The notes under the pieces were generated by a model. It was not told the origin of the DNA. It made no database searches and saw only the letters and a program-made list of their open reading frames with translations. A DNA stretch of 64,000 bases from Thermoplasmata archaeon (GTDB taxonomy: Archaea > Thermoplasmatota > Thermoplasmata > Lutacidiplasmatales > UBA184), in NCBI GenBank assembly GCA_022750435.1, contig JAKIVS010000001.1:221703-285702 (forward strand), given 5' to 3'. Both the position numbers and the translations under genes were made by a program. Every line of letters begins with the position of its first letter. Position 1 is the stretch's first letter. Below are positions 8,280 through 55,667 of this stretch, in pieces.

Positions 8280-8870
8280 CCGCCGGGCCAGCGCCGGGTC
8301 CGGGGTTGGGGCGGTGCGCTGGGGCGGGCGGCTCCAGGTCAGGTCCTTCGAGAGAGATTCCCACTCCTCGGGGCTCCGGGTCGCGGGCGACGGTGCCCGG
8401 TCGGGTCGGGCTCCGTCGACGGGCCCGGGGGCGACGGGCGGGGGCGCGGGCGTCTTCGCGGGTCCCTTCCTCACGGGATCCAGCTCTTTTCGCGGCGCGC
8501 TCATGGGTGCGAACTCCGGCCACCGACGGCCGGGCGATCCCCCAGAGAAATCGGCCCGGCGCCCACCGGAAAATTGTCCCCTACCTCCAGGGTCGGCATC
8601 GTCGGTGGGCTTCCGAGACCGCCCGGGGGTCAAGTGGTTTCGCCGTCGGCACCGGGGACGTCGGAACGGCTTCGGGACCCGCGGAAAGACGTCGGGCGGA
8701 CGTCAGCGATTGGCCGGGACGCCGAGGACTTGGAGTCCGACCCGGCTCCCGGACACGCCGAACCCTCGCGGTGTCGCTCCGCCGGCGAAGCGGGGACGTT
8801 CGGACGCTCCTCCGCGCCGCCAAGCCTAAGCGTCCGGACGCCTCCGAAGCGGCATCAACACCGCCCCGCC

Positions 8871-10370
8871 ATGGTCAATCGGAAATGGGTCGTCCTTAGC
8901 AACACCACGATCGGGACCCTCATGGCGTCAATCGACGCCTCGATCGTCCTGATCAGTCTCCCCACGATCGGGCGTCAGCTCCCCGACACCGGCCCGGCGA
9001 TCTTGCTCTGGGTGATGCTGTCGTACAGCGTCGTGACCACCACCCTGCTCCTCTCGTTCGGCCGCCTTTCCGACATGTACGGACGGGTCCGGCTCTACAC
9101 TCTCGGGTTTGCGGTGTTCACGATCGGCTCGGGGGTCGCCAGCCTTTCGCAGACGGGCCCGGAACTCCTGATCTCTCGGGTCGTCCAAGGCACGGGGGCC
9201 GCCTTCCTCTGGTCGAACTCCGCCGCTCTCCTCACCGACGCCTTTCCGGTGGGGGAGCGGGGAAAGGCGCTCGGGATCAACCAGGTCGCCGCCCTCTCCG
9301 GGTCCGTCATCGGGCTGATCCTCGGGGGGATCCTCACGACGACCCTCGGGTGGCGCTCCATCTTCTGGGTCAACCTCCCCATCGGCGCCTTCGGCACCAT
9401 CTGGGCGTACGTCGCCCTCCGGGAGATGCACGCCCCCGAGCGGGACGTCCCGATCGACTGGGTCGGGAACCTTTCGTTCGGGGGCGGCCTGACCCTGTGC
9501 CTCGTGGGGCTGACGATCGGTGCGCTCGCCGGCTGGACGAGTCTCTTCGTCGTACTCTCCGTCCCGCTCGGACTGCTCCTGCTCGTCGTCTTCGTGGTGA
9601 CCGAGCAGCGCGTCGAGCACCCGATGTTCGACCTTTCGCTGTTCCGGATCCGTACGTTTCTCGCTGGGAACGTCGCCGCCGCCTTGGCGGCCCTCGGCCG
9701 TGGGGCGTTCTCGTTCGTGATGGTGTTCTACCTGCAGGGGGTGTTGGGCGACAGCGCGCTCACGGCCGGGGTCCTCCTCATCCCCCTCTCGGTCGCGTTC
9801 GTCGTGACGGGCCCGCTCAGCGGGGCCATCTCGGACCGTCGGGGGGCGAGGGGTCTCGGCACGATCGGTCTCTTGGTCGGGGCCGTCGGGTTCGCCGTCC
9901 TGCTCCAGTTCCCGGCCGGCGGCTCCTACACTCTCCTCGGCGGAGCGATGGCGCTCCTCGGGCTGGGCCAGGGGATGTTCGCCGCGCCGAACCGCGCGGA
10001 GGTGATGACGAGCGTACCGGCCGCCCGTCGGGGGATCGCCGCCGGCATCGGGACCACGCTCCTCAACGCCGGTTCTCTCGGCTCCTTGGCCCTCGCCTTC
10101 ACGGTACTCGCCGCCTCCGTCCCACGTTCCACCCTGACGGAGATCTTCAGCGGGACCGGCGGGGCGATCGTCGATGCCGGCTCGTTCATGAACGGCCTCC
10201 ACGTCTTGTTCGCGATCGGCGTCGCCCTGATGGTCCTCGCCGCGATCGCGAACTCGCTTCGCGGAACGACCGAGCATGCGCCGGCGTCCGGGGACGGCGT
10301 GCCGCGCTCCACTTCGCCGTCGGAGTTTCCGTTGCTGCGGGTTCACGACGGAACCTCGGGGTCCAAATAG
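8871..10370 (+). CDS. MFS transporter (drug:H+ antiporter-like, ~14 TMS)
   Basis: ATG at 8871 (MVNRKWVVLSNTTIGTLMASIDASIV...). Multiple hydrophobic helices and GxxxDxxGRR-like loop motifs. Confidence 0.75.
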   Translation: MVNRKWVVLSNTTIGTLMASIDASIVLISLPTIGRQLPDTGPAILLWVMLSYSVVTTTLLLSFGRLSDMYGRVRLYTLGFAVFTIGSGVASLSQTGPELLISRVVQGTGAAFLWSNSAALLTDAFPVGERGKALGINQVAALSGSVIGLILGGILTTTLGWRSIFWVNLPIGAFGTIWAYVALREMHAPERDVPIDWVGNLSFGGGLTLCLVGLTIGALAGWTSLFVVLSVPLGLLLLVVFVVTEQRVEHPMFDLSLFRIRTFLAGNVAAALAALGRGAFSFVMVFYLQGVLGDSALTAGVLLIPLSVAFVVTGPLSGAISDRRGARGLGTIGLLVGAVGFAVLLQFPAGGSYTLLGGAMALLGLGQGMFAAPNRAEVMTSVPAARRGIAAGIGTTLLNAGSLGSLALAFTVLAASVPRSTLTEIFSGTGGAIVDAGSFMNGLHVLFAIGVALMVLAAIANSLRGTTEHAPASGDGVPRSTSPSEFPLLRVHDGTSGSK

Positions 10371-10392: not shown

Positions 10393-11118
10393 ATGAACGA
10401 ACCACCGTGGGTCCGATACGAGGGGGAGGGATTCCGCCGGGAGCTCACGACGTTCAAGATGGCGAACCACCCGTTCCGCACGCACCCGTTCTTCCAAGAG
10501 ATCGAGCGCGGCCAAGCTCCGGTCGCGACGGTCCAGCGGTGGGTCGGGCAGTTCTACCCCTGGCTCGCGTGCGTGCCGATCGCCATGGCGGAGCGGTTCG
10601 CACGCTGCTCGTACGAGCCTTCGAACGACCGGTTCCGGACGATGATCCTCGACCAGCTGCTCGAGGAGGCCGGCGACCCGAAGGGGAAGGCCCCGGGGCA
10701 CCCGGAGCTGTGGCTCCGATTCTGCGAGGGGATCGGCGTCCCGCGCGCCACCGTCCTCGCGACCCCGCACCTGCCGAGTACGCTCGTCGCCATCGACGAC
10801 TTCCTGTACATCAACCGCGAATCGCCGTTCTACATCTCCGCGGCAGGCTCCTCCGAGCCCCCCAACGTGGAGCTTTGCCAGCGCCTCTATCCGGCGTTCG
10901 CGAAACACTACAAAGTCCCGGAGGAGGCGCTCGAGTACTACCGGCTGCACGTCACCGCCGACGAAGAGCACAGCCGGTTCGTCGGCGAAATGGTGGCAGC
11001 GTTCGCGCACACCGTGGAGATTCGCAAGCAGATGTGGGACACGATGCTGCGCGGCTTCGCGTTGCACGCCCTCCTGGTCGACGGCGTCCTGGCGACCACC
11101 CGGACCGCCGGGTCGTGA
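10393..11118 (+). CDS. PqqC/TenA/CADD-like heme-oxygenase-fold protein
   Basis: Recalled similarity to PqqC: HPFFQEIERGQAPVATVQRWVGQFYPWL vs PqqC [27 protein letters not shown], and GHPELWLRFCEGIGV vs IEAWLRLGEAVGL. Sits at the head of the shikimate operon. Confidence 0.6.
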   Translation: MNEPPWVRYEGEGFRRELTTFKMANHPFRTHPFFQEIERGQAPVATVQRWVGQFYPWLACVPIAMAERFARCSYEPSNDRFRTMILDQLLEEAGDPKGKAPGHPELWLRFCEGIGVPRATVLATPHLPSTLVAIDDFLYINRESPFYISAAGSSEPPNVELCQRLYPAFAKHYKVPEEALEYYRLHVTADEEHSRFVGEMVAAFAHTVEIRKQMWDTMLRGFALHALLVDGVLATTRTAGS

Positions 11119-11152
11119 ACCGGCGGAGCACGCCGCCCGGCGAGCGTCCGCG

Positions 11153-11911
11153 ATGAACTACGGCACCACGATCCGACTCCGCCGGTTGTTCCCTCGCGCT
11201 GGGCGACGGCTCTTTTCGGTTCCGTTGGACCATTCCGTCTCGATGGGCCCGATCGACGGGCTCGAGGCGACCGGACCGGTCGCGGCCACGCTCCAGGACG
11301 CCGGTGTCGATCTCTTGATCGTCACGAAGGGCGCGGTCCGCGACGTCGCGAACGACCTCCGCCCCGGGACCCTCCTCGGGGTGCACGTGTCGGCGTCGAC
11401 GTCCCTCGGCCCGACCTCGAACCACAAAGTGCTGGTCGGAACCCCCGCCGAAGCGGTCGGCCTGGGGGCCGACCTGTTGAGCGTCCAGGTGAACTTCGGC
11501 ACTCCCGAGGAGGGAGCGATGCTCCAGGACCTCGGGACCGCGGTGGACGGGTGCCGGTCGCTCGGCCTCCCGCTCCTCTGCATGGCCTACGTCAAAAAGC
11601 CGGACGGAGCCCCGACGGCCGACGAACTTCGGCACGCCTGTCGAGCGGCGGCAGACCTCGGGGCCGACATGGTCAAGACCAGCTATCCGGGCACGCTCGA
11701 AGAGCTTCGTCGCTTGGTTCGCACGACGCCGGTCCCCGTCCTCCTCGGCGGCGGGGCCAAGACGAGCGACGATGCGGCGTTCCTCGCGGTCGTGCGCGAG
11801 ACGATCGAGGCGGGAGCCGGTGGCATCTGCATCGGCCGCAACCTGTTCCAACGGCAGCCCCTCGGCCCGCTGGCCCGCCAGGTCGCCCAGTTGCTCCACG
11901 GGACAGGCTGA
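11153..11911 (+). CDS. aroA': 2-amino-3,7-dideoxy-D-threo-hept-6-ulosonate synthase (ADH synthase, archaeal AroA'; class I aldolase DhnA family)
   Basis: DhnA-type class I aldolase fold, 252 aa. Immediately upstream of AroB' as in archaeal DKFP-pathway gene pairs. Confidence 0.7.
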   Translation: MNYGTTIRLRRLFPRAGRRLFSVPLDHSVSMGPIDGLEATGPVAATLQDAGVDLLIVTKGAVRDVANDLRPGTLLGVHVSASTSLGPTSNHKVLVGTPAEAVGLGADLLSVQVNFGTPEEGAMLQDLGTAVDGCRSLGLPLLCMAYVKKPDGAPTADELRHACRAAADLGADMVKTSYPGTLEELRRLVRTTPVPVLLGGGAKTSDDAAFLAVVRETIEAGAGGICIGRNLFQRQPLGPLARQVAQLLHGTG

Positions 11912-11924
11912 CTCCGGGGTCGCC

Positions 11925-12944
11925 GTGTCGTCCGACCGCATCATCGTTCACCCTGTCCACCCGGATCCGAGGGTCCGGGCCGAGGTCGTTGCGCAGGCGT
12001 ACCGGCGCGGCTTTCGCAGGTTCGCCATCTCCGAGAGAGACTCCCTCCCCGACGGGGTCGAACGGGTGACCGTCACCGACACGGAGTACCGTTCTCCGGA
12101 CGGAGCGAGACTCCTTCGTCGCGACGTGGAGAACGCGGCGGCGCTCGCGGATGCGATTCGGGAGGCGAAGAGCACCGGCGGCGTCGCACTTCGTTGGACC
12201 TCGGACCGCGTGATCCCGCTCGAGAACACGATCGCCCACCACCGAGGTTCGTTCCGGCTCTGGACCACCACTTCGCGGCCGGAGGAGGTTCCGGGGCTGT
12301 TGGGCGCCCTCGAGCATGGGGCGGATGCGGTCGTCGTGGAACTCCGGACCCCTGAGGAGGTCGACCGACTGGAGGCGCTCCTCGACGCCCGGGCTCGGCC
12401 GCCGGTCGCGTGGACGCTCGGACGGGTCGTTCGGGTCACCCCCGTCGGTCTCTCCGACCGCGTCCTCCTCGATACGACGTCCCTGCTCACGGAGTCGGAG
12501 GGCGTGCTGGTCGGCAGTCGCGCGGCCGCCCTCTTCCACCTGCGGAGCGAGGCGCTCGGCTCGGCGCACTCCCGCCCCCGACGGTTCCGGGTGAACGCGG
12601 GAGCCCCCCACTCCTACGTTCTGATGGCGGACGGCTCCACCCGGTATCTTTCGGAGCTCGAACCCGGCGAGGAACTCCTCGCCGTCGACCGGACCGGCAC
12701 GACGCGCGGGGTTCGCCTCGGGCGCCTCAAGATCGAGCGCCGTCCGACGGTGCTCCTCGAGGCGTCCGTGGGTCCGGCCCGCGCCATCGTGTTCGTCCAG
12801 GAGGCCGAAACCGTTCGGTTGTCCGGGGTCTCCGGCGCCCTCTCGGTGACGTCCCTCTCCGTCGGAACCGACGTACTCGTGGCGGACCTGCCTCCGGGCC
12901 GCCACCTCGGCCACGCGATCGACGAAACGATCGAGGAGCGATGA
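11925..12944 (+). CDS. aroB': 3-dehydroquinate synthase II (archaeal AroB')
   Basis: Strong match to M. jannaschii MJ1249 recalled from memory: FRVNAGAPHSYVL, RYLSELEPGEELLAVDRTGTTRGVRLGRLKIERRPTVLLEA. GTG start at 11925 inferred. The track ORF start at 11772 overlaps aroA'. Confidence 0.85.
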   Translation: MSSDRIIVHPVHPDPRVRAEVVAQAYRRGFRRFAISERDSLPDGVERVTVTDTEYRSPDGARLLRRDVENAAALADAIREAKSTGGVALRWTSDRVIPLENTIAHHRGSFRLWTTTSRPEEVPGLLGALEHGADAVVVELRTPEEVDRLEALLDARARPPVAWTLGRVVRVTPVGLSDRVLLDTTSLLTESEGVLVGSRAAALFHLRSEALGSAHSRPRRFRVNAGAPHSYVLMADGSTRYLSELEPGEELLAVDRTGTTRGVRLGRLKIERRPTVLLEASVGPARAIVFVQEAETVRLSGVSGALSVTSLSVGTDVLVADLPPGRHLGHAIDETIEER

Positions 12945-14440
12945 ATCCCCGGCCCCGTCTGATCGTGACGCTGCCGGCGCGGACGGTGGCCGAGGTCCGT
13001 TCGCAACGAGGGGTGGCCGTCCATGCCGGGGCGGACGTCCTGGAGGTCCGGGTCGACCGATGGACCTCCGAGCAGCGCTCCCGGGTCGGCCAACTGTTCC
13101 CGAGTCCCGTGCCCCTTCTGGCGACGCTCCGATCCCAAGCAGAAGGCGGAGAAGGACCCAACGATCCGACGGAGCGGGCCACCTGGATCGAGCAGGTCGC
13201 CGGTCACCCATTCGCCTGGATCGACCTCGAGCTGGAGCGAGACCCGCCTCCGACCCCCGGGCACGCCGGGACGCCTCCGCGCTGGGTCGGCTCCCGGCAC
13301 TTCCCGGCGGAGACACCGCTTCCCGTCCTGGAGGATTCGATTCGAGCGTCTCCCGAGCGATTCGCGTTCACCAAATTTGTCGTGCCCGCCTCGGTCGAAC
13401 GGTACTATCGGGAGATCCGGCCCCGGCTCCCCGAGTGGGTCGGACCTCGGACCACGGTGTTCACCACGGGCCCGTCCGGCCCGCTCGGCCGACTCTGGGC
13501 GCGCGAGCTCGGGCAACCGGTCGTGTTTGCCTCGTTGCCTCTCGACGACGTCGCTTCGACCGGTCCTCCCGTCGAGCCCGCGCAAGTGCCCGTCGACCAA
13601 CTGCACCGGAGTTGGGCGGTCGAGCCGGGTCGGAAGTTCGCCGTCGTGGGCCATCCGATCGCCCACAGCCTCTCGCCCACCATCCACGCCGGTTGGTTGG
13701 CGACCGAGCGCCGCGCCGCCAGCTTCGTGGACGTGGACGTCGCCAGCGCCGAGGAGCTGCGGCTTCTGGCGGATCCCGCGACCGGCGAACGTTGGGATGG
13801 CTGGAGCGTCACGGCGCCATGGAAGTCGCTCCTCCCCGGAATCGCCGACCACTGCAGCGATTCGGTCGTCGCCACGGGGGTGGCCAACACCGCCGCGTTC
13901 GGTGAGCAAGGGACCTCGGTCGATTTGACCGATGCGGAGGCGGTTCGCCGCCGATCCCTCGAGTTGGTCGGGGAGGGCGCCTGGGATGGGACCGAGGCCC
14001 TGGTGCTCGGCACTGGGGGCTCGGCCCGAGCGGCCCTCTACGCGCTCGCACCGAAGCGTCGGACGGTCCACCTCCTCGGACGGCGTGCCGAGGCCGTGGA
14101 ACGTCTCTCGAAGGAGTTGGGCGGTCGCCCCGCGAACCCACGGGACCGGCACGCGGTGGGGCTCGTCGTGCACGCGACGACCTTCGGGCGGGCCGGCTCC
14201 GGCCCCCTCGCACTGGACGTGGACGGGTGGGTGGGACCGGGCACGACCGTCCTCGATTTCGTGTACGCTCCGGAGGATTCCACGCTCCGCCGGAGGGCGG
14301 AGTCGCTCGGGGCGCGCTACGAGGATGGGCGCCGCCTCCTGGTGTACCAGGCCGCCGACGCCCACCGGATCTGGTGGGGCGAAGCTCCCTCCGAAGCCGC
14401 CGTGGCGTCCGCCTTGCGGAGGGTCGGATGCGCGGCGTAG
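12941..14440 (+). CDS. aroDE: Bifunctional 3-dehydroquinate dehydratase (type I) / shikimate dehydrogenase, in-frame AroD-AroE fusion
   Basis: ATG at 12941 overlaps the aroB' stop (ATGA). N-terminal ~210 aa is a type I DHQase (FTKFVVPA Lys region). C-terminal part has FAVVGHPIAHSLSPTIHAGW, typical of AroE. No stop between the two domains. Confidence 0.75.
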   Translation: MNPRPRLIVTLPARTVAEVRSQRGVAVHAGADVLEVRVDRWTSEQRSRVGQLFPSPVPLLATLRSQAEGGEGPNDPTERATWIEQVAGHPFAWIDLELERDPPPTPGHAGTPPRWVGSRHFPAETPLPVLEDSIRASPERFAFTKFVVPASVERYYREIRPRLPEWVGPRTTVFTTGPSGPLGRLWARELGQPVVFASLPLDDVASTGPPVEPAQVPVDQLHRSWAVEPGRKFAVVGHPIAHSLSPTIHAGWLATERRAASFVDVDVASAEELRLLADPATGERWDGWSVTAPWKSLLPGIADHCSDSVVATGVANTAAFGEQGTSVDLTDAEAVRRRSLELVGEGAWDGTEALVLGTGGSARAALYALAPKRRTVHLLGRRAEAVERLSKELGGRPANPRDRHAVGLVVHATTFGRAGSGPLALDVDGWVGPGTTVLDFVYAPEDSTLRRRAESLGARYEDGRRLLVYQAADAHRIWWGEAPSEAAVASALRRVGCAA

Positions 14441-15297
14441 GCGCAGGCACCGCCGCGATCTCCTTCGTGAACGCGCTCTTCACGGGCACTGGCGCGGCGG
14501 CCGCCATCGGCATCACGGCGACGGCGACCGTCGAACTCCAGCCGGCCCCCCACGCCGGACATATCGTCCTGGAGGCGCCCTCGGACACACCGCTGGCGCG
14601 GGCGTCCGTACTCGATGCGATCCGCCGCTACGGCGACGCCACCGAGGTCGACGCCCGGATCCGGATCGATTCGGCGATCCCCGTCGCCAAGGGCCTGAAG
14701 AGCTCCTCCGCGGTGGGCGTCGCCATCGCGCGGGCGGTCGCCGCGGCGTACGGGCGGAACCCGACCGACGAAGAGGTGGCCCGAGCGTCCGCGGAGGTTT
14801 CGCAGACTCTCGGCGTGAGCGCTACCGGCGCCTTCGACGACGCGCTCGCTTCGGCCGCGGGTGGCGTCGTGGTCACCGACAACCGGAGCCGGCGCGTACG
14901 GCTGCGGGGCTTCGTCGACCCCGACTGGGCCCTCGTCCTCTGGACACCATCGGGCACCCACGCTCTGAGCCCCGCATGGACCGAGCGATTCGCCGCAGAA
15001 CGGGTCACGGCCCTCGCGGCGGTCGAGGCGGCGGAGCGCGGGGAGTGGCTCACAGCGCTCTCGGCCAACACCGAGATCGTCGAGCGGGTGATGGGGTACG
15101 ACTATCGGCCGCTCCGTCGAGCGCTCGAGCGCTCGGGAGCGTTGGGGAGCGGGGTCAGCGGGCTCGGACCTGCGCTCGCGACCATCGCGCCCCGCGCCCG
15201 ACTCCGAGACGTCCTGCGGGGCCACCCGGCCGGAACGGCGGCCGTGGCCGCGGCGGAGTTCGTCCCCCCCGACCCTCGAGGGAGCGGTTCGGGATGA
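14428..15297 (+). CDS. aroK: Archaeal shikimate kinase (GHMP-kinase family)
   Basis: MRGVGAGTAAISFVNALFTGTG...KGLKSSSAVGVAIARAV is the GHMP motif. 289 aa. Overlaps aroDE by 13 nt. Confidence 0.8.
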   Translation: MRGVGAGTAAISFVNALFTGTGAAAAIGITATATVELQPAPHAGHIVLEAPSDTPLARASVLDAIRRYGDATEVDARIRIDSAIPVAKGLKSSSAVGVAIARAVAAAYGRNPTDEEVARASAEVSQTLGVSATGAFDDALASAAGGVVVTDNRSRRVRLRGFVDPDWALVLWTPSGTHALSPAWTERFAAERVTALAAVEAAERGEWLTALSANTEIVERVMGYDYRPLRRALERSGALGSGVSGLGPALATIAPRARLRDVLRGHPAGTAAVAAAEFVPPDPRGSGSG

Positions 15298-16565
15298 GCG
15301 TCCGTCGGGTACGCCCCGGAATCGCGGCCGGCCGCCTCCGGGCTCCTCCCTCCAAGAGCTACACGCACAGGGCGGTCTTGGCGGCGCACTTCGTCGGGCA
15401 CCGATACCGGATTGAGGATCCCTTGGTCGCCGACGATACTCTGGCCACCCTCCGGGCGGTCCGCGCCCTCGGCACGGCCGGGACACGCCGCCGCGGCCGG
15501 TGGGAGCTGGCACCCGGAGCGGTCCCGAAGCTTCAGCGGGTCATTGATTGCGGCGAGTCGGGAACGACCCTCCGTTTCCTCCTGCCCGCCGCCGCTCGTC
15601 TCTCCTCCCCCGTGCGATTCGCGCTCGGTCCGGGGCTCCGTCGGAGACCGCTCGCCCACGGCCTCGCCGCCCTGCGGGCCGCGGGAGCGCGCGTGACGGG
15701 CGACGGCCGGTCCCCGAAGTTTCTGGATGTCCGCGGACCCATCCATCCGCTCCACGGGACGGTCGACGCGTCCGAGAGCTCCCAATTCCTCTCCGGACTC
15801 CTCTACGCGCTTCCCGGTCTCCCGAGCTCGTCGGTTCTGAGCCGAGTCGGCTCGATCGTCTCCGAGCCGTACTTGGAAGCGACGGTTCGGATGCTGGCCG
15901 CCCACGGAGTAACGGTGCATCGTCACGGTCGACGGTTCGAGGTCCCGGCCCCCCAGGAATTCTCCGGAGCACGGTTCCGAGTTCCGGGGGACGCGTCGTC
16001 GGCCGCCTACCACTGGGCCGCCGCGGCGGCCACGGGGGGGTCGGTCACGGTCGAGGGTATCTCCCCCGAGTGGCCCCAAGCGGACCTCGCGATCCTGACG
16101 GCCCTGGCGAACGCCGGGGTCGAGGTGCGCCGGCGGGCCCGCTCGGTGACGGTCTCCGGGCGCCCGCAGCGCCCGCTTCGGGCGGATCTCGACGGCAGCC
16201 CGGACCTCCTGCCTCTCCTCGGCGTGCTCGCCGCGACGACCGTCGGCACGTCGCGATTGCGGGGCGCCGCGCACGCCGGGGCGAAGGAATCGAATCGTCG
16301 CCGGGAGACGGCGAAGCTCGCACGGGCAATGGGCGCCCACGTGTCGACCGGTCCCGCGGTCGTGGCGATCACCGGGACGGACCGCCCGAGCAGCTTTTCC
16401 TACGACGGGGCCGGCGACCATCGGATGGTGATGAGCGCCGCCGTCGGAGCGCTGGTGGGGAAATCGGCCTCTCGCATCGGCTCGGCGGAGACGGTCCGCA
16501 AGTCCTACCCTGAGTTCTGGTCCGACTTCCACCAACTCACCGGCGCCGCGGAGGGCGGCCGATGA
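15294..16565 (+). CDS. aroA: 3-phosphoshikimate 1-carboxyvinyltransferase (EPSP synthase)
   Basis: KSYTHRAVLAAHF and DHRMVMSAAVGAL motifs. ATGA overlap with aroK. Confidence 0.85.
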   Translation: MSVRRVRPGIAAGRLRAPPSKSYTHRAVLAAHFVGHRYRIEDPLVADDTLATLRAVRALGTAGTRRRGRWELAPGAVPKLQRVIDCGESGTTLRFLLPAAARLSSPVRFALGPGLRRRPLAHGLAALRAAGARVTGDGRSPKFLDVRGPIHPLHGTVDASESSQFLSGLLYALPGLPSSSVLSRVGSIVSEPYLEATVRMLAAHGVTVHRHGRRFEVPAPQEFSGARFRVPGDASSAAYHWAAAAATGGSVTVEGISPEWPQADLAILTALANAGVEVRRRARSVTVSGRPQRPLRADLDGSPDLLPLLGVLAATTVGTSRLRGAAHAGAKESNRRRETAKLARAMGAHVSTGPAVVAITGTDRPSSFSYDGAGDHRMVMSAAVGALVGKSASRIGSAETVRKSYPEFWSDFHQLTGAAEGGR

Positions 16566-17647
16566 TGACCTATGGGACCCGGTTCCGGGTGACTCTCTTC
16601 GGGAGCAGCCACGGGCCCGAGGTCGGGGCGGTCATCGAGGGAGTTCCGGCGGGTCGACCCGTCGATGCGGCGATTCTCCAATCGGCCCTGGACCGTCGAC
16701 GACCCGTCGGACGTCGCCTCGCGAGCCGCCGCCAGGAAGAGGATCGACTGATCCTGGACGAGGGGGTCGAAGACGGCGTCGCCACGGGCGCCCCCATCCG
16801 GCTGCACGTCGCGAACACGGACGTCCGCCGGTCGGACTACGACGGGATCCGTTCGACGCCGCGCCCGGGGCACGCCGACTATCCGGCGCGCCTCCGCTAC
16901 GGGGAGGCCGCCGACCTGTCCGGCGGCGGAATTTTCTCAGGGCGGATGACGGTGGGCCTCGTCGCCGCAGGAGCGATCGCGTCGACGTGGTTGCGAGAAA
17001 TCGGTGTCGAGGTCGTCGGGTACGTCCGTTCCATCGCCGACGTGACCGCCACGGTCGACGAGGGAATCCCGATCGGGGACCTCCGGTCGGCCCGGGACCG
17101 GAATGAGGTCGGCTGCCCCGACGATGGGGTCGCAACGCAGATGGCCGAGCGAATCGCGGACGCGCGGCGGGCGGGCGACAGCGTCGGGGGCATCGTCGTC
17201 GTGCGAGCCGCCGGAATCCCGGTCGGCATCGGGGAGCCGTTCTTCGATTCGGTCGAGAGCGCGATCGCCCATCTCGCCTTTTCCGTTCCGGCAGTGAAGG
17301 GGGTCGAGTTCGGGGCCGGGTTCGCCTCCGCCCGGATGCGGGGAAGCGAACACAACGATGCGTTCTACCTCGACGGCGGGACCGTGCGGACACGGACCAA
17401 CCACGCGGGGGGCATTCTCGGAGGGTTGACCGACGGGATGGACGTCGTCGCCCGGTTCGCGGTCAAGCCGACGTCGTCGATCGCCCGACCTCAAGAGACC
17501 GTCGACCTCGCTCGGCGGGCCGGCACCACCATCGTAGTTCCCGGCCGGCACGACCCGTGCATCGTGCCGAGGGCTGTGCCCGTCCTCGAGGCCGTCGTCG
17601 CGATCGCCATCGCGGACCTCGCGCTGCGCAGCGGGGCGCTCCGATGA
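16562..17647 (+). CDS. aroC: Chorismate synthase
   Basis: MTYGTRFRVTLFGSSHGPEVGAVIEGVPAG is the canonical AroC N-terminus. ATGA overlap with aroA. Confidence 0.85.
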   Translation: MMTYGTRFRVTLFGSSHGPEVGAVIEGVPAGRPVDAAILQSALDRRRPVGRRLASRRQEEDRLILDEGVEDGVATGAPIRLHVANTDVRRSDYDGIRSTPRPGHADYPARLRYGEAADLSGGGIFSGRMTVGLVAAGAIASTWLREIGVEVVGYVRSIADVTATVDEGIPIGDLRSARDRNEVGCPDDGVATQMAERIADARRAGDSVGGIVVVRAAGIPVGIGEPFFDSVESAIAHLAFSVPAVKGVEFGAGFASARMRGSEHNDAFYLDGGTVRTRTNHAGGILGGLTDGMDVVARFAVKPTSSIARPQETVDLARRAGTTIVVPGRHDPCIVPRAVPVLEAVVAIAIADLALRSGALR

Positions 17648-18702
17648 GACGGGGCGAGTTTCGGCCGGCGATCCTCGGTGCCTCCGGCTACATCGGACAA
17701 CACTTTGCCCGCCTGCTCGCCCGCCACCCGACGTTCGCCGACCCGATCCTCGTGACGAGCGAGCGGTCGGCGGGCCGGCGACTCGAGGACGTTTGGGCGC
17801 TCACCGAGGCCGCGCCGTCGGTCCTGGCACGGCAGCGTCTGCGCGCGGCTTCCCCTCGGACCCTCGCGGCGCTCGGCGTCAATCTCGTCTTCTCCGCATT
17901 GCCGTCGGGCGTGGCCCGTTCCACGGAAACCGCGGTGGTCACCCGGGGGATCCCGGTCTTCACCAACGCCGCCGACCATCGCGGTGACCTCGGTGTTCCG
18001 CTCGTCGTGCCCGAGGTCAACCCCGGCGAGCTTCGCCGCTCGGCGCGACGGCCCCGCGGCTCGGCCCTCCTGGTCGCGAACCCGAACTGCACCGCCACCG
18101 GACTTGCGCTCGGCCTCGCGCCCGTGTGGAACCTGCTGGCTCCCCGCGAGGTCCACGTCAGCACCTACCAGGCCCTGTCGGGGGCCGGACTTCCCGGCCT
18201 CGCCGCCGGGCACGGCCTCGACAACGTGGTTCCGTACATCGACGGAGAGGAAGAGAAGGTGGCGGGCGAATCGCTCCGCATCCTTCACGGCGGCGGCGCC
18301 GCGACCGCCCGGACGCGGGTTCTCGTCCACGCGGCCCGGGTCCCCGTCCGAGATGGCCATCTGGAGGCGGTCACGATCGTGGCGCGCCGGCGGCCAACTC
18401 TCGACCAGCTCCGTCGGGCGTGGAGGGGGTTCGACCCACTCGCCGAACGCGCACTCCCGACTTCTCCCCATCCGCCGGTCGTCGTTCGGGACGAGGCCGA
18501 TCGGCCTCAGACGCGGCTGGACCGATGGGCGGGCACGCCGGCCCGGGCCCGGGGCATGGCGGCGGTCGTCGGACGGGTCCGCTGGGAGCCCCCCTACCTG
18601 CGACTCTTCCTTCTGAGCCACAACGCGGTCCGGGGGGGAGCGGGTGGCTCCGTGCTCAACGCCGAACTCGCCCTCGCGGATGGGATGTTGGCCGCCCGAT
18701 GA
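17644..18702 (+). CDS. asd: Aspartate-semialdehyde dehydrogenase
   Basis: ILGASGYIGQ NAD(P) motif and catalytic ANPNCTATG. ATGA overlap with aroC. Confidence 0.8.
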   Translation: MRRGEFRPAILGASGYIGQHFARLLARHPTFADPILVTSERSAGRRLEDVWALTEAAPSVLARQRLRAASPRTLAALGVNLVFSALPSGVARSTETAVVTRGIPVFTNAADHRGDLGVPLVVPEVNPGELRRSARRPRGSALLVANPNCTATGLALGLAPVWNLLAPREVHVSTYQALSGAGLPGLAAGHGLDNVVPYIDGEEEKVAGESLRILHGGGAATARTRVLVHAARVPVRDGHLEAVTIVARRRPTLDQLRRAWRGFDPLAERALPTSPHPPVVVRDEADRPQTRLDRWAGTPARARGMAAVVGRVRWEPPYLRLFLLSHNAVRGGAGGSVLNAELALADGMLAAR

Positions 18703-20123
18703 ACCGTCGCCGCTCCCGCCCCGTCGTCGTCAAGTTCGGCGGCGCGGCACTCGCCGACGTCGCCGCCGTGGCCGCCCGGATCCGGAGCCTCTCCTCCGAC
18801 GGCGCACCGCTCGTGGTGGTCGTGTCCGCGCGGGAAGGGGTCACCGACCGGCTCCTCGCGGCGTGCGAGCCCAGGGCCACGAGCGCCGGCATCGACCGGA
18901 CCCTCCGATGGGTGCGCGACCGTCACCCAGGTTCCGGCGTCGCCGGCGAACGGCACCTCGCCGAGCTCGAACGCGGCCTCCGCAGCGGGGCGGTCGGTTC
19001 CCCCGCTCGCACCGACCGGATCCTGGCGATCGGAGAACGGCTCGCGGTCGACTGGCTCGTGCCCGCCTTGCGTTCGTTGGGGATCGACTGTGTCGGCGTA
19101 GACGCCGCCGCGCTCGGCTTGTGGACGGACGGTCGTCACGGTGGGGCGCTCATCGACCTCGACCAGTCCCGGGGTCCGGTGCGCGCGGGACTCGGCGCCC
19201 TGCTGGCGCGCGGCACCGTCCCGATCGTCACCGGATTCCTTGGACGCGGACGGCACGGAGAGCCGGTCACGTTGGGCCGGGGCGGTTCGGACTACTCGGC
19301 GAGCGCCATCGCGGCCCTCCTGGAGGCCCGCTTCGTGGAGTTGATGAAGCCCGAAGCCTCGATCCTCTCCGCCGACCCTTCGATGGTGTCGGCGGCCCGT
19401 CCGATTCCCTACCTCACGTACGCCGAAGCGGAGGAGCTGGCCGAGTTCGGGGCTCGCGTTCTCCACCCGATGACCGTCGAACCGGCGCGCCGGCACGGAG
19501 TCGAGATCCGGGTCCGCTCGATGCGGCGACCGGACGAACTCACCGTCGTCGGTCCCGCGGCCGCGGCATCCGTCGGCGTGCGAGCGCTGACCCTCTCCCC
19601 GACGGTCCACTTGTTCCGACTGCGATTCCCGGGCGGCCGGCGACGCCCGGGCGTTCTCGCCGAGTTGTGCGCGCGGCTCGCCGAGGCCGGGGTGCCCGTC
19701 CTGCAGGCGTTCACCTCGGCCGCTGTCGTCTCGGTCGTGGTGGAGACCCATCGGAGTTCGAGCGCCGGGCCGGTGTTGGGCCGATTGGTCGAGGCCCGGG
19801 GGGCGCACCTGGAACCCGCCGTCCCGGTCGTCCTCCTCGCCGCCGTCGGGTCCGGAGCGATTCGGGAACTCGCCCGCGTTCCTCCCGAGGTTCTCGCGGT
19901 GGGGCGGGGAGTCAGCGCGACCCGCGCGAGCGTGACGATCGCCGTGCCGGTCGAAGACGGGCAGCGCGCGCTCCGAGCCCTCCACACCGTCCTAATCGAG
20001 CGGGGGCCGACGCTCCGGCGAGCCCGGCCCGCGGTCCGTCGTCCTTTTGGCCCCCGACCGGGTCGCGCCCCCCGCCCGAGCCCGGCAGCGCGCCGACGTT
20101 CGGGAGGCAAGGCTCCTGCGTGA
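18699..20123 (+). CDS. Aspartate kinase
   Basis: VVVKFGGAALADVAAV...VVVVSAREGVTDRLL amino-acid kinase fold. C-terminal ACT-like region plus an Arg/Pro-rich tail. ATGA overlap with asd. Confidence 0.75.
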   Translation: MNRRRSRPVVVKFGGAALADVAAVAARIRSLSSDGAPLVVVVSAREGVTDRLLAACEPRATSAGIDRTLRWVRDRHPGSGVAGERHLAELERGLRSGAVGSPARTDRILAIGERLAVDWLVPALRSLGIDCVGVDAAALGLWTDGRHGGALIDLDQSRGPVRAGLGALLARGTVPIVTGFLGRGRHGEPVTLGRGGSDYSASAIAALLEARFVELMKPEASILSADPSMVSAARPIPYLTYAEAEELAEFGARVLHPMTVEPARRHGVEIRVRSMRRPDELTVVGPAAAASVGVRALTLSPTVHLFRLRFPGGRRRPGVLAELCARLAEAGVPVLQAFTSAAVVSVVVETHRSSSAGPVLGRLVEARGAHLEPAVPVVLLAAVGSGAIRELARVPPEVLAVGRGVSATRASVTIAVPVEDGQRALRALHTVLIERGPTLRRARPAVRRPFGPRPGRAPRPSPAARRRSGGKAPA

Positions 20124-20767
20124 AGACGTTCGTCAAGCTCTCCGGACTCACCGACCTCGACTCCGTCCGACTCGTCCCCGACGGGGGGGCCGCCGGGTTC
20201 CTCGTGGGGGTCCCAGGCTCTCCCCGCAACCTCGCCCCGGCCCGCGCCGCGGAGCTCGTGGCCGAGGTTCCGGCGGGCGCGGAGGTGTGGGCCGTCGCGC
20301 GCGCCCCCTCCGCCGAGCTGATCCACCAATTGTTCGACGAGGTCGGCGTCGACCGCGTTCAGGTGTTCGGCCCGGTCCCGGAGGGGCTCGAGTTCCTCGA
20401 GATGCACCACCTCGTACCGTCGCTCGCCATCCCTCGGGCCGGTACGGAAGGCGCCGAGCCGAAGGTACCTCCGGCCGAAGATTTCTCCCGGTTGCATCTC
20501 GACGCCGTCGGCGACCCGGCCATGGACGGAAGTGCCGAGCGACCGGACTGGGAAATGTGCGCCCGCATCGTGGACGGGCAACCGGGTCGGAAGCTCACCC
20601 TCGCGGGGGGTCTCACGGCCGAGAACGTGGCGGAGGCGTTGGCGGCGGTCCGGCCCTGGGGCGTGGACGTTACCGTCGGGGTCGAGATGGCTCCGGGCCG
20701 CAGCGACCCGGCGCGAGTGGCGGCGTTCCTCGCCGCCCTCGAGACGACCGAGTCCGGCGGGGCCTGA
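20120..20767 (+). CDS. trpF: N-(5'-phosphoribosyl)anthranilate isomerase
   Basis: GTG start overlapping the aspartate kinase stop (GTGA). VKLSGLTDLDSV...FLVGVPGSPRNL...VDRVQVFG is a TrpF TIM-barrel pattern. Confidence 0.7.
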   Translation: MKTFVKLSGLTDLDSVRLVPDGGAAGFLVGVPGSPRNLAPARAAELVAEVPAGAEVWAVARAPSAELIHQLFDEVGVDRVQVFGPVPEGLEFLEMHHLVPSLAIPRAGTEGAEPKVPPAEDFSRLHLDAVGDPAMDGSAERPDWEMCARIVDGQPGRKLTLAGGLTAENVAEALAAVRPWGVDVTVGVEMAPGRSDPARVAAFLAALETTESGGA

Positions 20768-20794: not shown

Positions 20795-22303
20795 CTACTC
20801 GTCGCCGCGGGCCATCACGGGGACGGCAGATTCGACTCCGCCGTGTCCCCGCTCCGGGGAGGCTGCCGGACGCCCGGTCCCCGTGGAGTTCGGGAGCCCG
20901 AAGGCACGGACCTTGCCATCGGCGCAACCCTCCACGACGACCCCGTGGCCGACCGACGGGGCGGAGAGGAATCCGGCGGGACAGGTGAACGTCTTCAGGA
21001 CGGCCCCGTTGAGGGCCTCGATCACGCTGAGCACGTGACCCGCCGGCACGAACAGGAGCCCGTTCGCCGTCGTGGGCGCACCGAATCCGCCCGAGGAGAG
21101 CGCGTCCTTCCAGATCACGTGGCCGGTGGCGGGAGCGAGCGCCTCGACGCTCCCGTTGACGAGCTTCCCGGCGACCTTCGTCTCCCGGGTGGCGACGAAT
21201 AGGAGTCCCTGCGCGAAAGCGGCCGGCTCGACCGAGCTCGCGTGGGAGAGCATCCCGTACCAGACCGGTCCCTTCGAGAGGTTCGTACGATTCAGGGTGT
21301 AGAAGAAGCCGTTCTTGTTGATCGCCCCGACGAGCGGAGCGCCCGCCCGGTCCTGGAACAGCGTCGGCGTCGCCCCGAAGTCGCCGTCGAAGATCGACTC
21401 GTTGGCCGGAACGTCCCAGTACGACTCCACCGCGAGCGTGGTGGCGTTCACGGCGATCATCGCCTGGGTGTAGTTCGTGCCGTCGGTGGCATTCGGCGGG
21501 TTCCCCGTGGTCACGTAGATGGTGTTGCGCGCCACGTCGAGCGACGGCGAACTCCAGATGCTCCCGCCGAGCATCGTGGGGGAGACCGTGCGGAACAGGT
21601 GGTCGAGGGTACCGTTCGAGGCGTCGAGCTCGTACAATCCTCCCGGAACGAGCGGCATGTCGCACAGGCTCGCCGCCCCGACGTAGACGTGACCGTCCCA
21701 GACGAGGGGGCTCGACCAGGAGTAGTACCCGTTCAGCGGCGAGCCCTGTGTGTACATCCAGACGACCTTGCCGTTCGTCGCGTTGAGGGCCCAGTAGGTG
21801 CCGTTGCCGCCGCCGACGTAGACGGTGTTCCGGTAGATGGTCGCGCTCGAGCTGACGCCGATCGTGACCTTGGTGGGGCAGTAGGCACTGACCCCGAGGA
21901 ACGTCTTCCACACGATGGCGCCCGTGAGGAGGTTGTACGCCGTGAAGTTCCCGTCCCACGAGCCGATGTAGGTCCGGTCGCCGACGATGGCCGCCGACGC
22001 GGCGACGGACCGGTGCGTGGTGGCATTCCACAGCTCCACCATTGAAGGGGCGTTCGACACGTTGAGGACGTCGTCGCCGATGTTCGCCGACGTGCGCTGG
22101 TCGTTTTGCAGGTACGTCGGCCAGTCGTGACCGGGAAGGACCGTGGGCGTGGACAGGGAGGCGAGGTGCGCGCTCGGTCCCGCCCCGCTTCCGACGGCGG
22201 CGACGATCGGGGAACCGAAGCCGCTGAGGAGAAGCAGGAGCGTGGCGGCCAGGGTGACGACGAGTACGGGCATCGGGGAGGGAACGCGGAACGTCATGGC
22301 CAT
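20795..22303 (-). CDS. Secreted PQQ-repeat beta-propeller glycoprotein
   Basis: Start at ATG 22303 (MAMTFRVPSPMPVLVVTLAATLLLLLSG, signal/anchor). Repeated W-containing propeller blades. More than 10 NxS/T sequons. The track ORF has an extended RG-rich N-terminus that was rejected. Confidence 0.65.
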   Translation of the reverse strand: MAMTFRVPSPMPVLVVTLAATLLLLLSGFGSPIVAAVGSGAGPSAHLASLSTPTVLPGHDWPTYLQNDQRTSANIGDDVLNVSNAPSMVELWNATTHRSVAASAAIVGDRTYIGSWDGNFTAYNLLTGAIVWKTFLGVSAYCPTKVTIGVSSSATIYRNTVYVGGGNGTYWALNATNGKVVWMYTQGSPLNGYYSWSSPLVWDGHVYVGAASLCDMPLVPGGLYELDASNGTLDHLFRTVSPTMLGGSIWSSPSLDVARNTIYVTTGNPPNATDGTNYTQAMIAVNATTLAVESYWDVPANESIFDGDFGATPTLFQDRAGAPLVGAINKNGFFYTLNRTNLSKGPVWYGMLSHASSVEPAAFAQGLLFVATRETKVAGKLVNGSVEALAPATGHVIWKDALSSGGFGAPTTANGLLFVPAGHVLSVIEALNGAVLKTFTCPAGFLSAPSVGHGVVVEGCADGKVRAFGLPNSTGTGRPAASPERGHGGVESAVPVMARGDE

Positions 22304-35826: not shown

Positions 35827-37284
35827 GTGAACACGAACATTCTCGTCGCCATCGCGGTCGTCGCCCTGCTCGCCGGGCCCGTGGAGTACTACAGCGTCGC
35901 CGAAGCGTCCGCCCCGGCGGCGCATACCCTGAGCTTCAACCAACTGGGATTCCTCGATCACATCGACCACATCGTGTACGTCGTGATGGAGAACCACGCG
36001 TACGACAACTACTTCGGAACCTATTGTCAGACCAAGAGCGTCGACTGTCCCAACACCTCCCCCGGGATTCCCGCCGGCACCTGCGTCCCGTACAACGTTT
36101 CCCTTCCGAACGGCCCGTGCATCAAACCCTGGAACTATACCGCCCAGAACTGGTCACTGAAGACCCTCCTTCCGCACTCCTACAAGTCCTCCGAAGCGTC
36201 GTGGAACTACGGCGCGATGGACGGGTTCTACCAGGCAGAGGGCTCCGGCCTCGACCCCTTCGGCCACTACAACGGGACGACCGCCCCGATCTACTGGGAC
36301 CTGGCGCAGGAGTACGCGCTTTCGGACAACTTCTTCTCGTCGGTCCTGAGCTATTCGCTCCCCAATCACTGGCACATCGTCGCGGGACAAGCGCCGCAAG
36401 TCATCATCGTCAACGGCACCCTCGGCTCCCCCGCGGTACCGGCCAACCTGACGATCGCGAACGACAAGACCTACCTCGGGCAGGCGAACAACACTCGCAG
36501 CATCGAGGATCTCCTGCTCCGCTCCAAGGTCTCGTGGACGTACTACGACTACACCCTCGGAACGTACGCCAGCGCGATCAACATCAAGCTGAACGCCGCC
36601 AAGAATCTGATCACATCGACCGGCGTCGCGTACAATCCTTGGAATCCCCAGGCGGCGAAGGCGGAGTCCTACAACGCATCGTTCGTCCAGCACTTCGCCG
36701 TGAACACGCAGTTCTACTCCGACGCGCGGAACGGGACGCTTCCGAACCTCTCCTGGGTGATCCCGGCTGCGCAGGACTCCGACCACGCCCCGCAGAACTC
36801 CACGCTCGCCCAGACGTGGCTGGCGAGCATCGTGAACGCGGTCGAGACATCGCCCGACTGGAACACCACGGCCCTGTACATCACGTGGGACGACTTCGGG
36901 GGCTTCTACGACAACGTCGCACCCCCGAGTTTCTACGGCCAGCAGCTTGCCTTCCGAGTGCCCCTGATTGTCATTAGCCCGTACACCCGGGCCGGAGCGA
37001 TCACGAACACGATGGGATTCTTCGAGTCTGTCCTCCGCCTGATGGAGTGGCGGTTCCATCTCGGCTGCCTGACCGTCCTCGACTGCAATGCTCCTCTCCC
37101 GATCTACGGGTTCAACTGGAACCAAACCGCACGGGCCCCGATGTTGTTCCCCACCAACTTCTCGAAGGCGACGTACCCGTTCAATCCGAAGTGGGATCAA
37201 GGAACGAAGATTCCCGAGGGAACGTACGTGCCGCCGGCGAACTACACGTACTTTCCAGACGGAGAACTGCCCGACATCGATTGA
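35827..37284 (+). CDS. Secreted phosphoesterase (phospholipase C / acid phosphatase PF04185-like)
   Basis: Signal peptide, VVMENHAYDNYFGT signature, many NxS/T sequons. GTG start. Confidence 0.7.
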   Translation: MNTNILVAIAVVALLAGPVEYYSVAEASAPAAHTLSFNQLGFLDHIDHIVYVVMENHAYDNYFGTYCQTKSVDCPNTSPGIPAGTCVPYNVSLPNGPCIKPWNYTAQNWSLKTLLPHSYKSSEASWNYGAMDGFYQAEGSGLDPFGHYNGTTAPIYWDLAQEYALSDNFFSSVLSYSLPNHWHIVAGQAPQVIIVNGTLGSPAVPANLTIANDKTYLGQANNTRSIEDLLLRSKVSWTYYDYTLGTYASAINIKLNAAKNLITSTGVAYNPWNPQAAKAESYNASFVQHFAVNTQFYSDARNGTLPNLSWVIPAAQDSDHAPQNSTLAQTWLASIVNAVETSPDWNTTALYITWDDFGGFYDNVAPPSFYGQQLAFRVPLIVISPYTRAGAITNTMGFFESVLRLMEWRFHLGCLTVLDCNAPLPIYGFNWNQTARAPMLFPTNFSKATYPFNPKWDQGTKIPEGTYVPPANYTYFPDGELPDID

Positions 37285-37450
37285 GCCGAGATTTCCGGTG
37301 GTCGACCCTTCGGGGCCGACCTGAAGGCGGTGGACCGGGGGCCCCGGCGCTCGAGTTGCACGTCCCTCGGAGGTGGGCGGTTCGTGAACCGGCCGGCGGG
37401 CGGTTCCCCGGACCGGCCGGCCTCGGCAGGGAATCACGCCGAGAGTGAGG

Positions 37451-37555
37451 TGCTCCCGGCGGGAGTTTCCCCGGACGGCGGGAATCGCCGTCCGATTTTG
37501 AACCCGCGTCAGAGGCTCGAGAGGCCTCTATCCTTGACCACTAGACTACGGGAGC
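37451..37555 (-). tRNA. tRNA-Glu(CUC) interrupted by a ~32-nt intron at non-canonical position 59/60 (T-loop)
   Basis: Minus-strand parse: GCTCCCG-TA-GTCT-AGTGGTCAA-GGAT-A-GAGGC-CTCTCGA-GCCTC-TGAC-GCGGG-TTCAAA[ATCGGACGGCGATTCCCGCCGTCCGGGGAAAC]T-CCCGC-CGGGAGC-A. 7-bp acceptor stem, 5-bp anticodon stem, U33, G37, anticodon CTC. T-stem GCGGG/CCCGC and loop TTCAAAT are restored on excision. The intron carries a perfect 9-bp hairpin CGGACGGCG/CGCCGTCCG. Confidence 0.7.
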
Positions 37556-37661
37556 AGCCTCGGCTGCGGTACTGAATCCGCTCTTTGAGGCTTTCGCACT
37601 CGAAATCCGCACCGGCACGGCGGGCGGCAACGCCTATCTGCGCCCGACCGGTTCCGGCCCC

Positions 37662-55537: not shown

Positions 55538-55667
55538 CCGCGGAGACCGTGGCACGCCGGCCGGGTTCCGTACCAAGACCAAGGCGGTTGCGGTCGGAGG
55601 AATGGGTTCGGAGGCTTGGGTGACCCCGGGACGTCGCTCGCGGGGACCCGCGGAGCGGACCACCCGC

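Follow-up and report, generated by a model that had tools for sequence, protein, structure and literature searches.

A predicted ten-gene operon joining asd and ask to the aspartate-semialdehyde-dependent shikimate genes of a Lutacidiplasmatales archaeon

The biochemistry of the aspartate semialdehyde (ASA)-dependent entry into aromatic biosynthesis comes from two methanogens, and for haloarchaea the matter is unsettled. In the methanogen pathway, which draws on ASA and DKFP (6-deoxy-5-ketofructose-1-P), the entry enzymes are MJ0400, a 2-amino-3,7-dideoxy-D-threo-hept-6-ulosonate (ADH) synthase, and MJ1249, a 3-dehydroquinate (DHQ) synthase II, as credited in later papers to White 2004 and Porat 2006. 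In Halobacterium salinarum, aroA' (OE1472F) is found in the trpCBA operon and is induced by aromatic amino-acid limitation (PMC4162585). The locus described here brings the genes of such a route together with asd and ask, which encode aspartate-semialdehyde dehydrogenase and aspartate kinase. It comprises ten genes in one orientation (10393-20767, + strand; Table 1) in a stretch of 64,000 nt of contig JAKIVS010000001.1 (GCA_022750435.1), hereafter the window, meaning the whole stretch that was analysed. The host is a high-GC soil archaeon of the Lutacidiplasmatales (Thermoplasmata), represented by a metagenome-assembled genome (MAG). The block from hdo to trpF is read, with a probability of roughly 70%, as one translationally coupled transcription unit encoding a complete route from aspartate to chorismate via the ASA entry.

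Genes were placed using the GC3/GC2 frame signal, and start codons were mapped at each junction, as raw lists of open reading frames (ORFs) are useless at the ~71% G+C of the window. The overlaps at 12941, 15294, 16562, 17644, and 18699 are of the ATGA type and the one at 20120 is GTGA, while aroDE and aroK overlap by 13 nt at 14428; stop and start codons overlap at all junctions from aroB' to trpF. Only hdo and aroA', 34 nt apart, and aroA' and aroB', 13 nt apart, do not overlap. The 3' neighbour of trpF is convergent (20795-22297, - strand). The original prediction had listed ten genes in this order, which was borne out by the frame signal, start mapping, and NCBIfam/Pfam assignments, and had counted seven overlaps (five ATGA, one GTGA, one of 13 nt), exactly as returned by start-codon mapping. 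Because four-nt overlaps are common in the source genome, these junctions are not remarkable per se; they stand above chance because they are kept across ~50 species. In the proposed scheme, Ask and Asd would convert aspartate to ASA; ADH, formed by AroA' through condensation of ASA and a keto-sugar phosphate (in methanogens, DKFP), would be cyclised to 3-dehydroquinate by AroB', and AroDE, AroK, AroA, and AroC would take 3-dehydroquinate on to chorismate. As one ASA is consumed per chorismate, co-expression of asd and ask would tie precursor supply to aromatic demand.

AroA' scored just under the cut-off of NF005556 (233.5 versus 241 bits) and below that of TIGR01949 (204 versus 299 bits). 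Its top PDB match was MJ0400 (2qjg, 174.5 bits), class I fructose-bisphosphate aldolase (FBA) and LsrF scoring 83 and 78 bits, and residues K175, Y146, and D26 align with Lys184, Tyr153, and Asp33 of MJ0400, all of them conserved. The roles of the MJ0400 residues (Lys184 as the Schiff-base lysine; Tyr153) were reportedly described by Morar et al. in 2007. The AroA' N-terminus from the start at 11153 is conserved among homologues, and the AroA' proteins of the order form an isolated group, with two 50%-identity clusters more than 50% identical and the remainder at 45% or less. AroB' matched Pfam DHQS (PF01959) with 240 bits and NF002627 with 221 bits (cut-off 392), and its gene adjoins that of the aldolase-type AroA', starting 13 nt after the stop codon. 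TrpF matched Pfam PRAI with 61 bits and NF002298 with 107 bits, under the cut-off. On sequence grounds, AroA', AroB', and TrpF clearly belong to their families, if as divergent members. The AroDE fusion, with DHquinase_I at residues 9-204, Shikimate_dh_N at 235-317, and TIGR00507 at 233-493, is retained throughout the order. AroK (TIGR01920, 176.8 versus 126.85 bits), AroA (TIGR01356, 298.6 versus 287.25), and AroC (NF003793, 400.8 versus 321) all exceed the curated cut-offs and, with AroA', AroB', and AroDE as clear members of their families, the aro gene identities proposed earlier stand.

Asd scored 312.7 bits with NF006416 (cut-off 232), and its top PDB match was the Methanocaldococcus jannaschii enzyme 1ys4 (211 bits), with the NPNC cysteine and SGAG motifs kept. 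Ask scored 231.7 bits with TIGR00657 (cut-off 208.7); its top PDB match was the M. jannaschii Thr-sensitive aspartate kinase 3c1m, spanning the catalytic and first ACT domains, and Ask carries the motifs KFGG and GRGGSDYS. Its ACT domains fell below threshold (ACT_9 25.6 bits, ACT_7 22.9 bits), as compared with 104 and 56 bits for the canonical Ask of a metagenome locus from outside the order (L141), and we infer that its feedback control may be altered. Ask is encoded inside the operon of an ASA-consuming pathway, and no further copy of ask or asd was found within the 64-kb window. The protein ends in an Arg/Pro-rich tail of 34 aa (residues 441-474; window 20021-20123) that is clade-specific and unconserved and extends to the GTGA overlap with trpF; most orthologues end at ~438-440 aa without it, and it may be translated former spacer.

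Conservation of the arrangement was assessed in 80 loci returned by a scan limited to one genome per GTDB species, all from Thermoplasmata MAGs, which were then compared with the window proteins by tblastn. The order aroA'-aroB'-aroDE-aroK-aroA-aroC-asd-ask was present in essentially all loci of sufficient length. The synteny check proposed with the original prediction came out in its favour: in 51/53 loci asd is the gene next after aroC, in 51/52 ask is the gene next after asd, and the overlaps are conserved. The aroB'>aroDE, aroK>aroA, aroA>aroC, and aroC>asd junctions have a median spacing of -4 nt and are at or below zero in 93-97% of loci, the aroC/asd overlap being kept in 93% of 56 loci; the median is -13 nt for aroDE>aroK, and asd>ask spacing is 30 nt or less in 96% of 51 loci. 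These overlaps persist though the orthologous proteins are only 38-66% identical. The gene hdo is the upstream neighbour of aroA' in 65 loci, mostly at a distance of ~195 nt, and the short hdo-aroA' gap is confined to the window's clade. The inclusion of trpF in the operon, as first proposed, holds for the window and its clade (10/80 loci), whereas most other loci carry a short TrpE/PabB-like gene and a TrpG amidotransferase gene after ask, with the trpE-like gene overlapping the ask stop codon. The asd-ask pair is flanked by aromatic genes on both sides, since aroC precedes it and trpF or trpE-like/trpG follows it.

A metagenome scan with a diverse alignment yielded 70 loci from outside the Lutacidiplasmatales, several of which carry asd, often preceded by ask, immediately upstream of aroA'. 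In Candidatus Hecatella orcuttiae (Bathyarchaeia; L102), trp genes are followed by ask-asd-aroA'-aroB'-aroD-aroE-aroK-aroA-aroC, and in a Nitrososphaeria MAG (L107) the order is asd-aroA'...aroC; the asd/aroA' overlap is 4 nt in both. The same head arrangement of asd, with or without ask, was found in L099, L112, L122, L129, L140, and L158, and in L141 ask and asd follow aroA'...aroC. The Bathyarchaeia and Nitrososphaeria enzymes, including ADH synthase and DHQ synthase II, score far above the NCBIfam cut-offs. The linkage is a minority solution that has been assembled in at least two gene orders across three archaeal classes. Functional coupling is argued on the ground that the same linkage recurs with a different gene order, which chance adjacency would not predict, and the precursor-supply logic suggested at the outset for asd and ask gains from the conserved overlaps, the aromatic flanks, and the independent asd-aroA' arrangements. 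Literature searches covering the ASA/DKFP route, aro operons, GapMind, and the gri/3-amino-4-hydroxybenzoate (3,4-AHBA) clusters returned no description of asd/ask-aro linkage, in agreement with the earlier remark that a description of such supply logic within one operon had not been seen. Neither the arrangement nor its distribution appears to have been described; the sequences themselves are already public in automatically annotated MAGs. As a separate observation among the non-Thermoplasmata loci, two tandem AroA' paralogues stand upstream of aroB' in L105, L106, L109, L110, L118, L120, L123, L127, L131, L137, and L147.

Table 1. Coordinates of the genes and signals of the hdo-trpF locus, and of the leader in three related loci (window positions unless a locus is named)
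Feature	Coordinates	Strand	Description
MFS transporter gene	8730-10370	+	Pfam MFS_1 151 bits; possible upstream member of the unit
TATA-like element AAATAG	10365-10370	+	23-28 nt upstream of hdo ATG (at -29 in the hexamer count), overlapping the MFS stop codon
hdo	10393-11118	+	Heme-oxygenase-like, PqqC/CADD/TenA superfamily
aroA'	11153-11911	+	ADH synthase homologue
aroB'	11925-12944	+	3-Dehydroquinate synthase II, GTG start
aroD-aroE fusion (aroDE)	12941-14440	+	Type I dehydroquinase + shikimate dehydrogenase, 499 aa
aroK	14428-15297	+	Archaeal GHMP-type shikimate kinase
aroA	15294-16565	+	EPSP synthase
aroC	16562-17647	+	Chorismate synthase
asd	17644-18702	+	Archaeal-type aspartate-semialdehyde dehydrogenase
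ask	18699-20123	+	Monofunctional aspartate kinase, divergent ACT region
trpF	20120-20767	+	Phosphoribosylanthranilate isomerase, last gene of the unit
Leader example	L011:1030-1227		Between hdo and aroA'
Leader example	L013:9804-10006		Between hdo and aroA'
Leader example	L041:9800-10000		Between hdo and aroA'

The archaeal origin given to the operon in the original prediction agrees with the identity of the host as a Thermoplasmata archaeon and with archaeal marker genes in the window (tRNA-intron endonuclease, CDP-archaeol synthase, and a GGGP-synthase-like gene). AroA' homologues with 72-91% identity were every one from MAGs labelled Thermoplasmata archaeon, and named loci among the relatives belong to Ca. 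Lutacidiplasma silvani and Ca. Lutacidiplasmatales. A near-identical locus is present in JAKIVY010000023.1 (GCA_022750275.1), with Asd 99% identical, the same order MFS-hdo-aroA'...asd-ask, and the same 339-aa gene call for aroB'; exact-sequence look-ups with AroC and AroA' of the window had no match. Lutacidiplasmatales is a high-GC soil order (PMC9287336), and neither aromatic nor aspartate-family biosynthesis is discussed in that paper and its supplements.

The product of the first gene, Hdo, matched Pfam Haem_oxygenas_2 with 62 bits and the CADD family model TIGR04305 with 67 bits (cut-off 200). A profile of 28 Hdo sequences compared against the PDB retrieved PqqC (1e-12), 4-aminobenzoate synthase 9pj4 (3.5e-12), and CT610 (7e-7). 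Residues E92, H103, E155, H186, D190, and H193 are invariant in the 28 orthologues and align to the metal ligands of 9pj4 and CT610, which in CT610 are E81, H88, E142, H174, D178, and H181. In the motif H31-P32-F33-F34, an invariant Phe (F34) stands at the sacrificial Tyr27 of CADD (H-T/P-F-Y motif), and L165, with Arg164 adjoining, stands at the amine-donor Lys152, ten residues past the E142 equivalent. A CADD-type self-sacrificing 4-aminobenzoate synthase was rejected on these two replacements and on score, the six ligands being kept. PqqC itself was likewise rejected, with TIGR02111 at 54 bits (cut-off 240) and metal ligands where the aligned PqqC chains have none; no pqq biosynthesis genes were found near hdo in the window. 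The earlier description of gene 1 as PqqC-like is retained as to superfamily, and the protein itself is better placed with CADD/HDO-like metal-binding proteins than with PqqC; it is predicted to be a metal-dependent HDO-like enzyme. Hdo is 67-88% identical across the order, conserved to the degree of AroA' and more so than the remaining operon enzymes, and no hdo homologue adjoining aroA' was found in the other lineages sampled among the metagenome loci. In one related locus (L047:8683-10008), a CM_2 + PDH (chorismate mutase/prephenate dehydrogenase) fusion takes the place of hdo directly upstream of aroA', a further sign of aromatic supra-operon behaviour.

Upstream of hdo, an MFS transporter gene ends 22 nt before the hdo start on the same strand. 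Its own start is uncertain, being at 8730 by the frame signal and at ~8871 by a 499-aa call in the near-identical MAG. The gene lies upstream of hdo only in L003, L005, L016, and L081, the closest relatives of the window, and it is regarded, from its distribution, as a recent arrival in the neighbourhood, outside the conserved core.

Transcription signals were sought by counting AT-rich hexamers and T-runs in place of a sigma-70 and intrinsic-terminator scan, the host being archaeal. AT-rich hexamers occupy 0.45% of window positions, yet several genes that come first in their operons have one at -25 to -32, which fits leaderless mRNAs. The AAATAG element before hdo is a candidate promoter of a leaderless hdo-aro transcript, and a single transcript probably starts at this element. 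No TATA-like hexamer was found 15-45 nt upstream of the nine genes after hdo, no AT-rich hexamer within 17001-20328 (the asd and ask stretch), and no T5 run on the + strand between 8000 and 21500. A promoter or terminator splitting asd and ask from the aro genes, named with the original prediction as an outcome that would tell against it, was accordingly not seen among these signals; the missing internal signals count as weak negative evidence.

Several points weigh against reading the block as one ASA-supplied unit, and they are considered here with the explanations to which they belong. The inference on promoters and terminators relies on a crude criterion of AT-richness in a 71% GC MAG, and promoters may lie within coding sequence; the ten genes would then form more than one transcript, with internal promoters driving asd-ask(-trpF) apart from the aro genes. 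That archaeal operons often have internal promoters (Koide et al. 2009, as relayed in PMC4162585), and that promoter elements of a 71% GC genome may not be AT-rich and could be missed by the scan, speaks for such a division, which is nonetheless judged improbable in view of the stop/start overlaps conserved across the order at all junctions from aroB' to trpF and of the missing hexamers and T-runs. Alternatively, asd and ask could be the sole housekeeping genes of the genome for the common pathway to Lys, Thr, and Met, their position in the operon carrying no meaning for supply. Asd and Ask are full-length enzymes of ordinary type with catalytic motifs intact, Ask retains an ACT region that is moderately conserved in orthologues, so that ordinary feedback control is possible, and most other aroA'-aroB' loci lack the linkage: asd is immediately upstream of aroA' in just 4/32 of those with enough upstream sequence, and neither asd nor ask was found near three bacterial ADH-synthase loci (Desulfurobacterium, Ca. 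Desulfofervidus, and Thermosulfidibacteraceae). A meaningless position is, however, hard to reconcile with overlapping codons kept in ~50 species, with the placement of asd and ask away from the operon edge, aroC on one side and trp genes on the other, and with 4-nt overlaps of asd and aroA' in two other archaeal classes under a different order; sole-copy status would, moreover, still allow co-regulation with aromatic synthesis. This explanation is considered distinctly unlikely.

The remaining objections concern the chemistry of the entry step. AroA', AroB', and TrpF all fall under the NCBIfam curated cut-offs, and the BagB/FevI and BagC/FevH models also match AroA' and AroB'; together with the resemblance of the adjoining Hdo to CADD-type 4-aminobenzoate synthases, this could indicate that AroA' and AroB' make some other aromatic compound from ASA, along the lines of GriI/GriH 3,4-AHBA or 4-aminobenzoate (pABA) synthesis, and that asd and ask feed a secondary or cofactor pathway that includes Hdo. 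The ADH synthase and DHQ synthase II models outscore those of Bag/Fev (233 versus 183 bits for AroA'; 221 versus 126 bits for AroB'), all five downstream shikimate enzymes are encoded in the operon by aroDE, aroK, aroA, and aroC, and Hdo lacks equivalents of CADD Tyr27 and Lys152, so the GriI/GriH (BagB/BagC) identity was rejected, and this explanation is very improbable. It would be less surprising, although still unlikely, if the route were ASA-dependent with a second substrate other than DKFP, such as fructose-1,6-bisphosphate or another keto-sugar phosphate, in which case the name DKFP route would be a misnomer in this aerobic lineage. No DKFP-forming gene was found within the 64-kb window, the AroA' clade is distant (45% identity or less beyond its two clusters), and DKFP synthase is missing in many archaeal genomes (PMC9012536). 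Whether DKFP is the substrate everywhere has been put in doubt by work on haloarchaea (PMC4162585): for Halobacterium, Gulko et al. were unable to demonstrate that DKFP is used, and fructose-1,6-bisphosphate (F-1,6-P) was their proposal instead (PMC4162585; PMC8305020). Against another donor stand the conservation of the MJ0400 catalytic residues in AroA' and the want of any positive sign of one in the sequence. DKFP as the co-substrate of AroA' is here an assumption, and the preferred reading, a coupled unit from aspartate to chorismate via ASA, is stated in terms of ASA.

In the relatives, a further element bears on the control of the operon. A conserved leader of ~195 nt lies upstream of aroA' in 59/76 related loci (examples in Table 1) and is absent from the window and its clade. 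It contains an ORF of ~23 codons whose invariant ATG and TGA are 69, 66, 72, or 54 nt apart, a spacing divisible by three in 48/48 sequences. The interior of the ORF is variable, and its end is [T/A/S/P]-W-[L/S]-W-stop; coding periodicity was uninformative (GC by codon position 0.73/0.77/0.81). Directly past the stop codon is the segment GGGAGGCGCC (segment 1), which can form a local helix with a GGCGCC arm further downstream or pair with a segment upstream of the aroA' Shine-Dalgarno (SD) sequence that is complementary to it (anti-SD). RNAalifold on a MAFFT alignment returned two helices only, the variable hairpins aligning poorly, and per-sequence energy tests were used instead of the consensus. 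The segment 1:anti-SD duplex had an energy of -30.1 kcal/mol, as compared with -21.0 kcal/mol for shuffled controls, and was significant in 42/47 sequences; in one sub-clade there are compensatory changes in both pairings of segment 1.

In silico, 58 distinct leaders were folded under constraints representing two ribosome-masking states. When the mask stood for a ribosome stalled with its A site at the first Trp codon, the segment 1:anti-SD duplex was intact (0.82) and the SD comparatively free, whereas masking at the stop codon reduced the duplex to 0.34 and raised anti-SD:SD pairing from 0.25 to 0.56. SD pairing rose by more than 0.1 in 39/58 leaders and fell in one. In these foldings the helices are mutually exclusive and Trp starvation would switch the operon on, a polarity that suits a biosynthetic attenuator; as no U-run follows, such an effect would act on translation. 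In 31/32 loci the leader goes together with the trpE-like/trpG ending, and it is found in 0/9 loci with trpF after ask, counts to which phylogenetic non-independence applies. No Rfam match was obtained for the window or four related loci, and among the papers listed by a literature search combining leader-peptide attenuation, archaea, and tryptophan, all titles were bacterial. As judged from alignment and folding, the leader looks like a Trp-sensing leader-peptide attenuator. A tentative extension, to which we would give somewhat less than even odds, is that asd and ask, the latter with degenerate ACT domains, are under aromatic control, expressed only within the operon and in most of the order switched by the Trp leader, and that the window represents a derived clade in which the leader was lost and trpE-like/trpG swapped for trpF.

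Other features of the window stand apart from the operon. A region of ~6.5 kb (56100-62800) has 74-78% GC and a positive GC skew; long ORFs in or beside it (55602-59264, +; 59466-62507, +; 59577-62768, -) had no Pfam match, and the frame-signal gene caller returned no clear gene in 56100-62800. The coding signal is strong for a 1,481-aa protein at 41891-46336 (-), for which Pfam gave no hit; its gene adjoins that of an iron-dependent repressor (41224-41661) and a ZnuABC-like transporter. Ahead of the repressor gene is the window's most AT-rich stretch (TTGATTAATAATTAGG...ACTTATTAAGAT), which may be its operator and promoter. The sole tRNA gene, tRNA-Glu(CTC) at 37481-37555 (-), lies within a local GC dip to 0.635 (36000-38000).

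That asd, alone or with ask, is linked to the aro genes by a conserved translational coupling (aroC-asd-ask or asd-aroA') in three archaeal classes provides independent genomic evidence that ASA is the real precursor in aerobic archaea of soil and sediment that are uncultured. The linkage can also serve as a context rule in annotation, distinguishing ADH synthase from class I FBA paralogues, and it flags an aspartokinase whose regulation may track aromatic rather than Lys/Thr demand. The leader in the relatives is the more novel lead, ahead of the operon linkage. If real, it makes asd and ask responsive to Trp across most of the order; if the assignment is true, no leader-peptide attenuator (trpL/ermC-like) would have been described in Archaea before it; and if functional, it would make ribosome-mediated attenuation in Archaea directly testable.

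Compared with attenuators of the trpL type, which act on transcription, and of the ermC type, which act on translation, the leader shares a short ORF ending with two Trp codons and mutually exclusive helices, the last of which sequesters the SD of the first gene; it differs in being archaeal, in having no terminator U-run, and in belonging to no Rfam family. An aspartokinase specific to one pathway, ask_ect, was reportedly found in ectoine gene clusters by Stoeveken and colleagues in 2011, who are said to have shown a second, housekeeping Ask experimentally. The likeness is that the aspartokinase gene keeps company with those of a pathway that consumes ASA, supply following demand, whereas ask_ect is bacterial, serves a secondary pathway for an osmolyte, lacks an asd in its cluster, and comes with a demonstrated housekeeping Ask. 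With the Halobacterium trpCBA-OE1472F operon the locus shares the joining of aroA' and tryptophan-branch genes; that operon is without asd, ask, and other aro genes, and in the present one the trp link is distal, after asd-ask. The Bathyarchaeia and Nitrososphaeria operons have asd, with or without ask, translationally coupled to ASA-dependent aro genes, a GHMP-type aroK, and canonical downstream steps; there asd and ask are at the head, overlapping aroA', and aroD and aroE are separate, whereas in the window asd and ask follow aroC and the enzymes are divergent. The same two entry enzymes, the GHMP shikimate kinase, and the canonical steps after DHQ are shared with the methanogen ASA/DKFP pathway. 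In methanogens the genes of that pathway are scattered, and asd and ask are not known to be linked to them. Here, all seven steps and asd and ask are in one overlapping operon, in an aerobic, 71% GC soil Thermoplasmata host with a divergent AroA' clade. The operon is a new layout for a pathway already known, not a novel type of system, and is modestly surprising to specialists.

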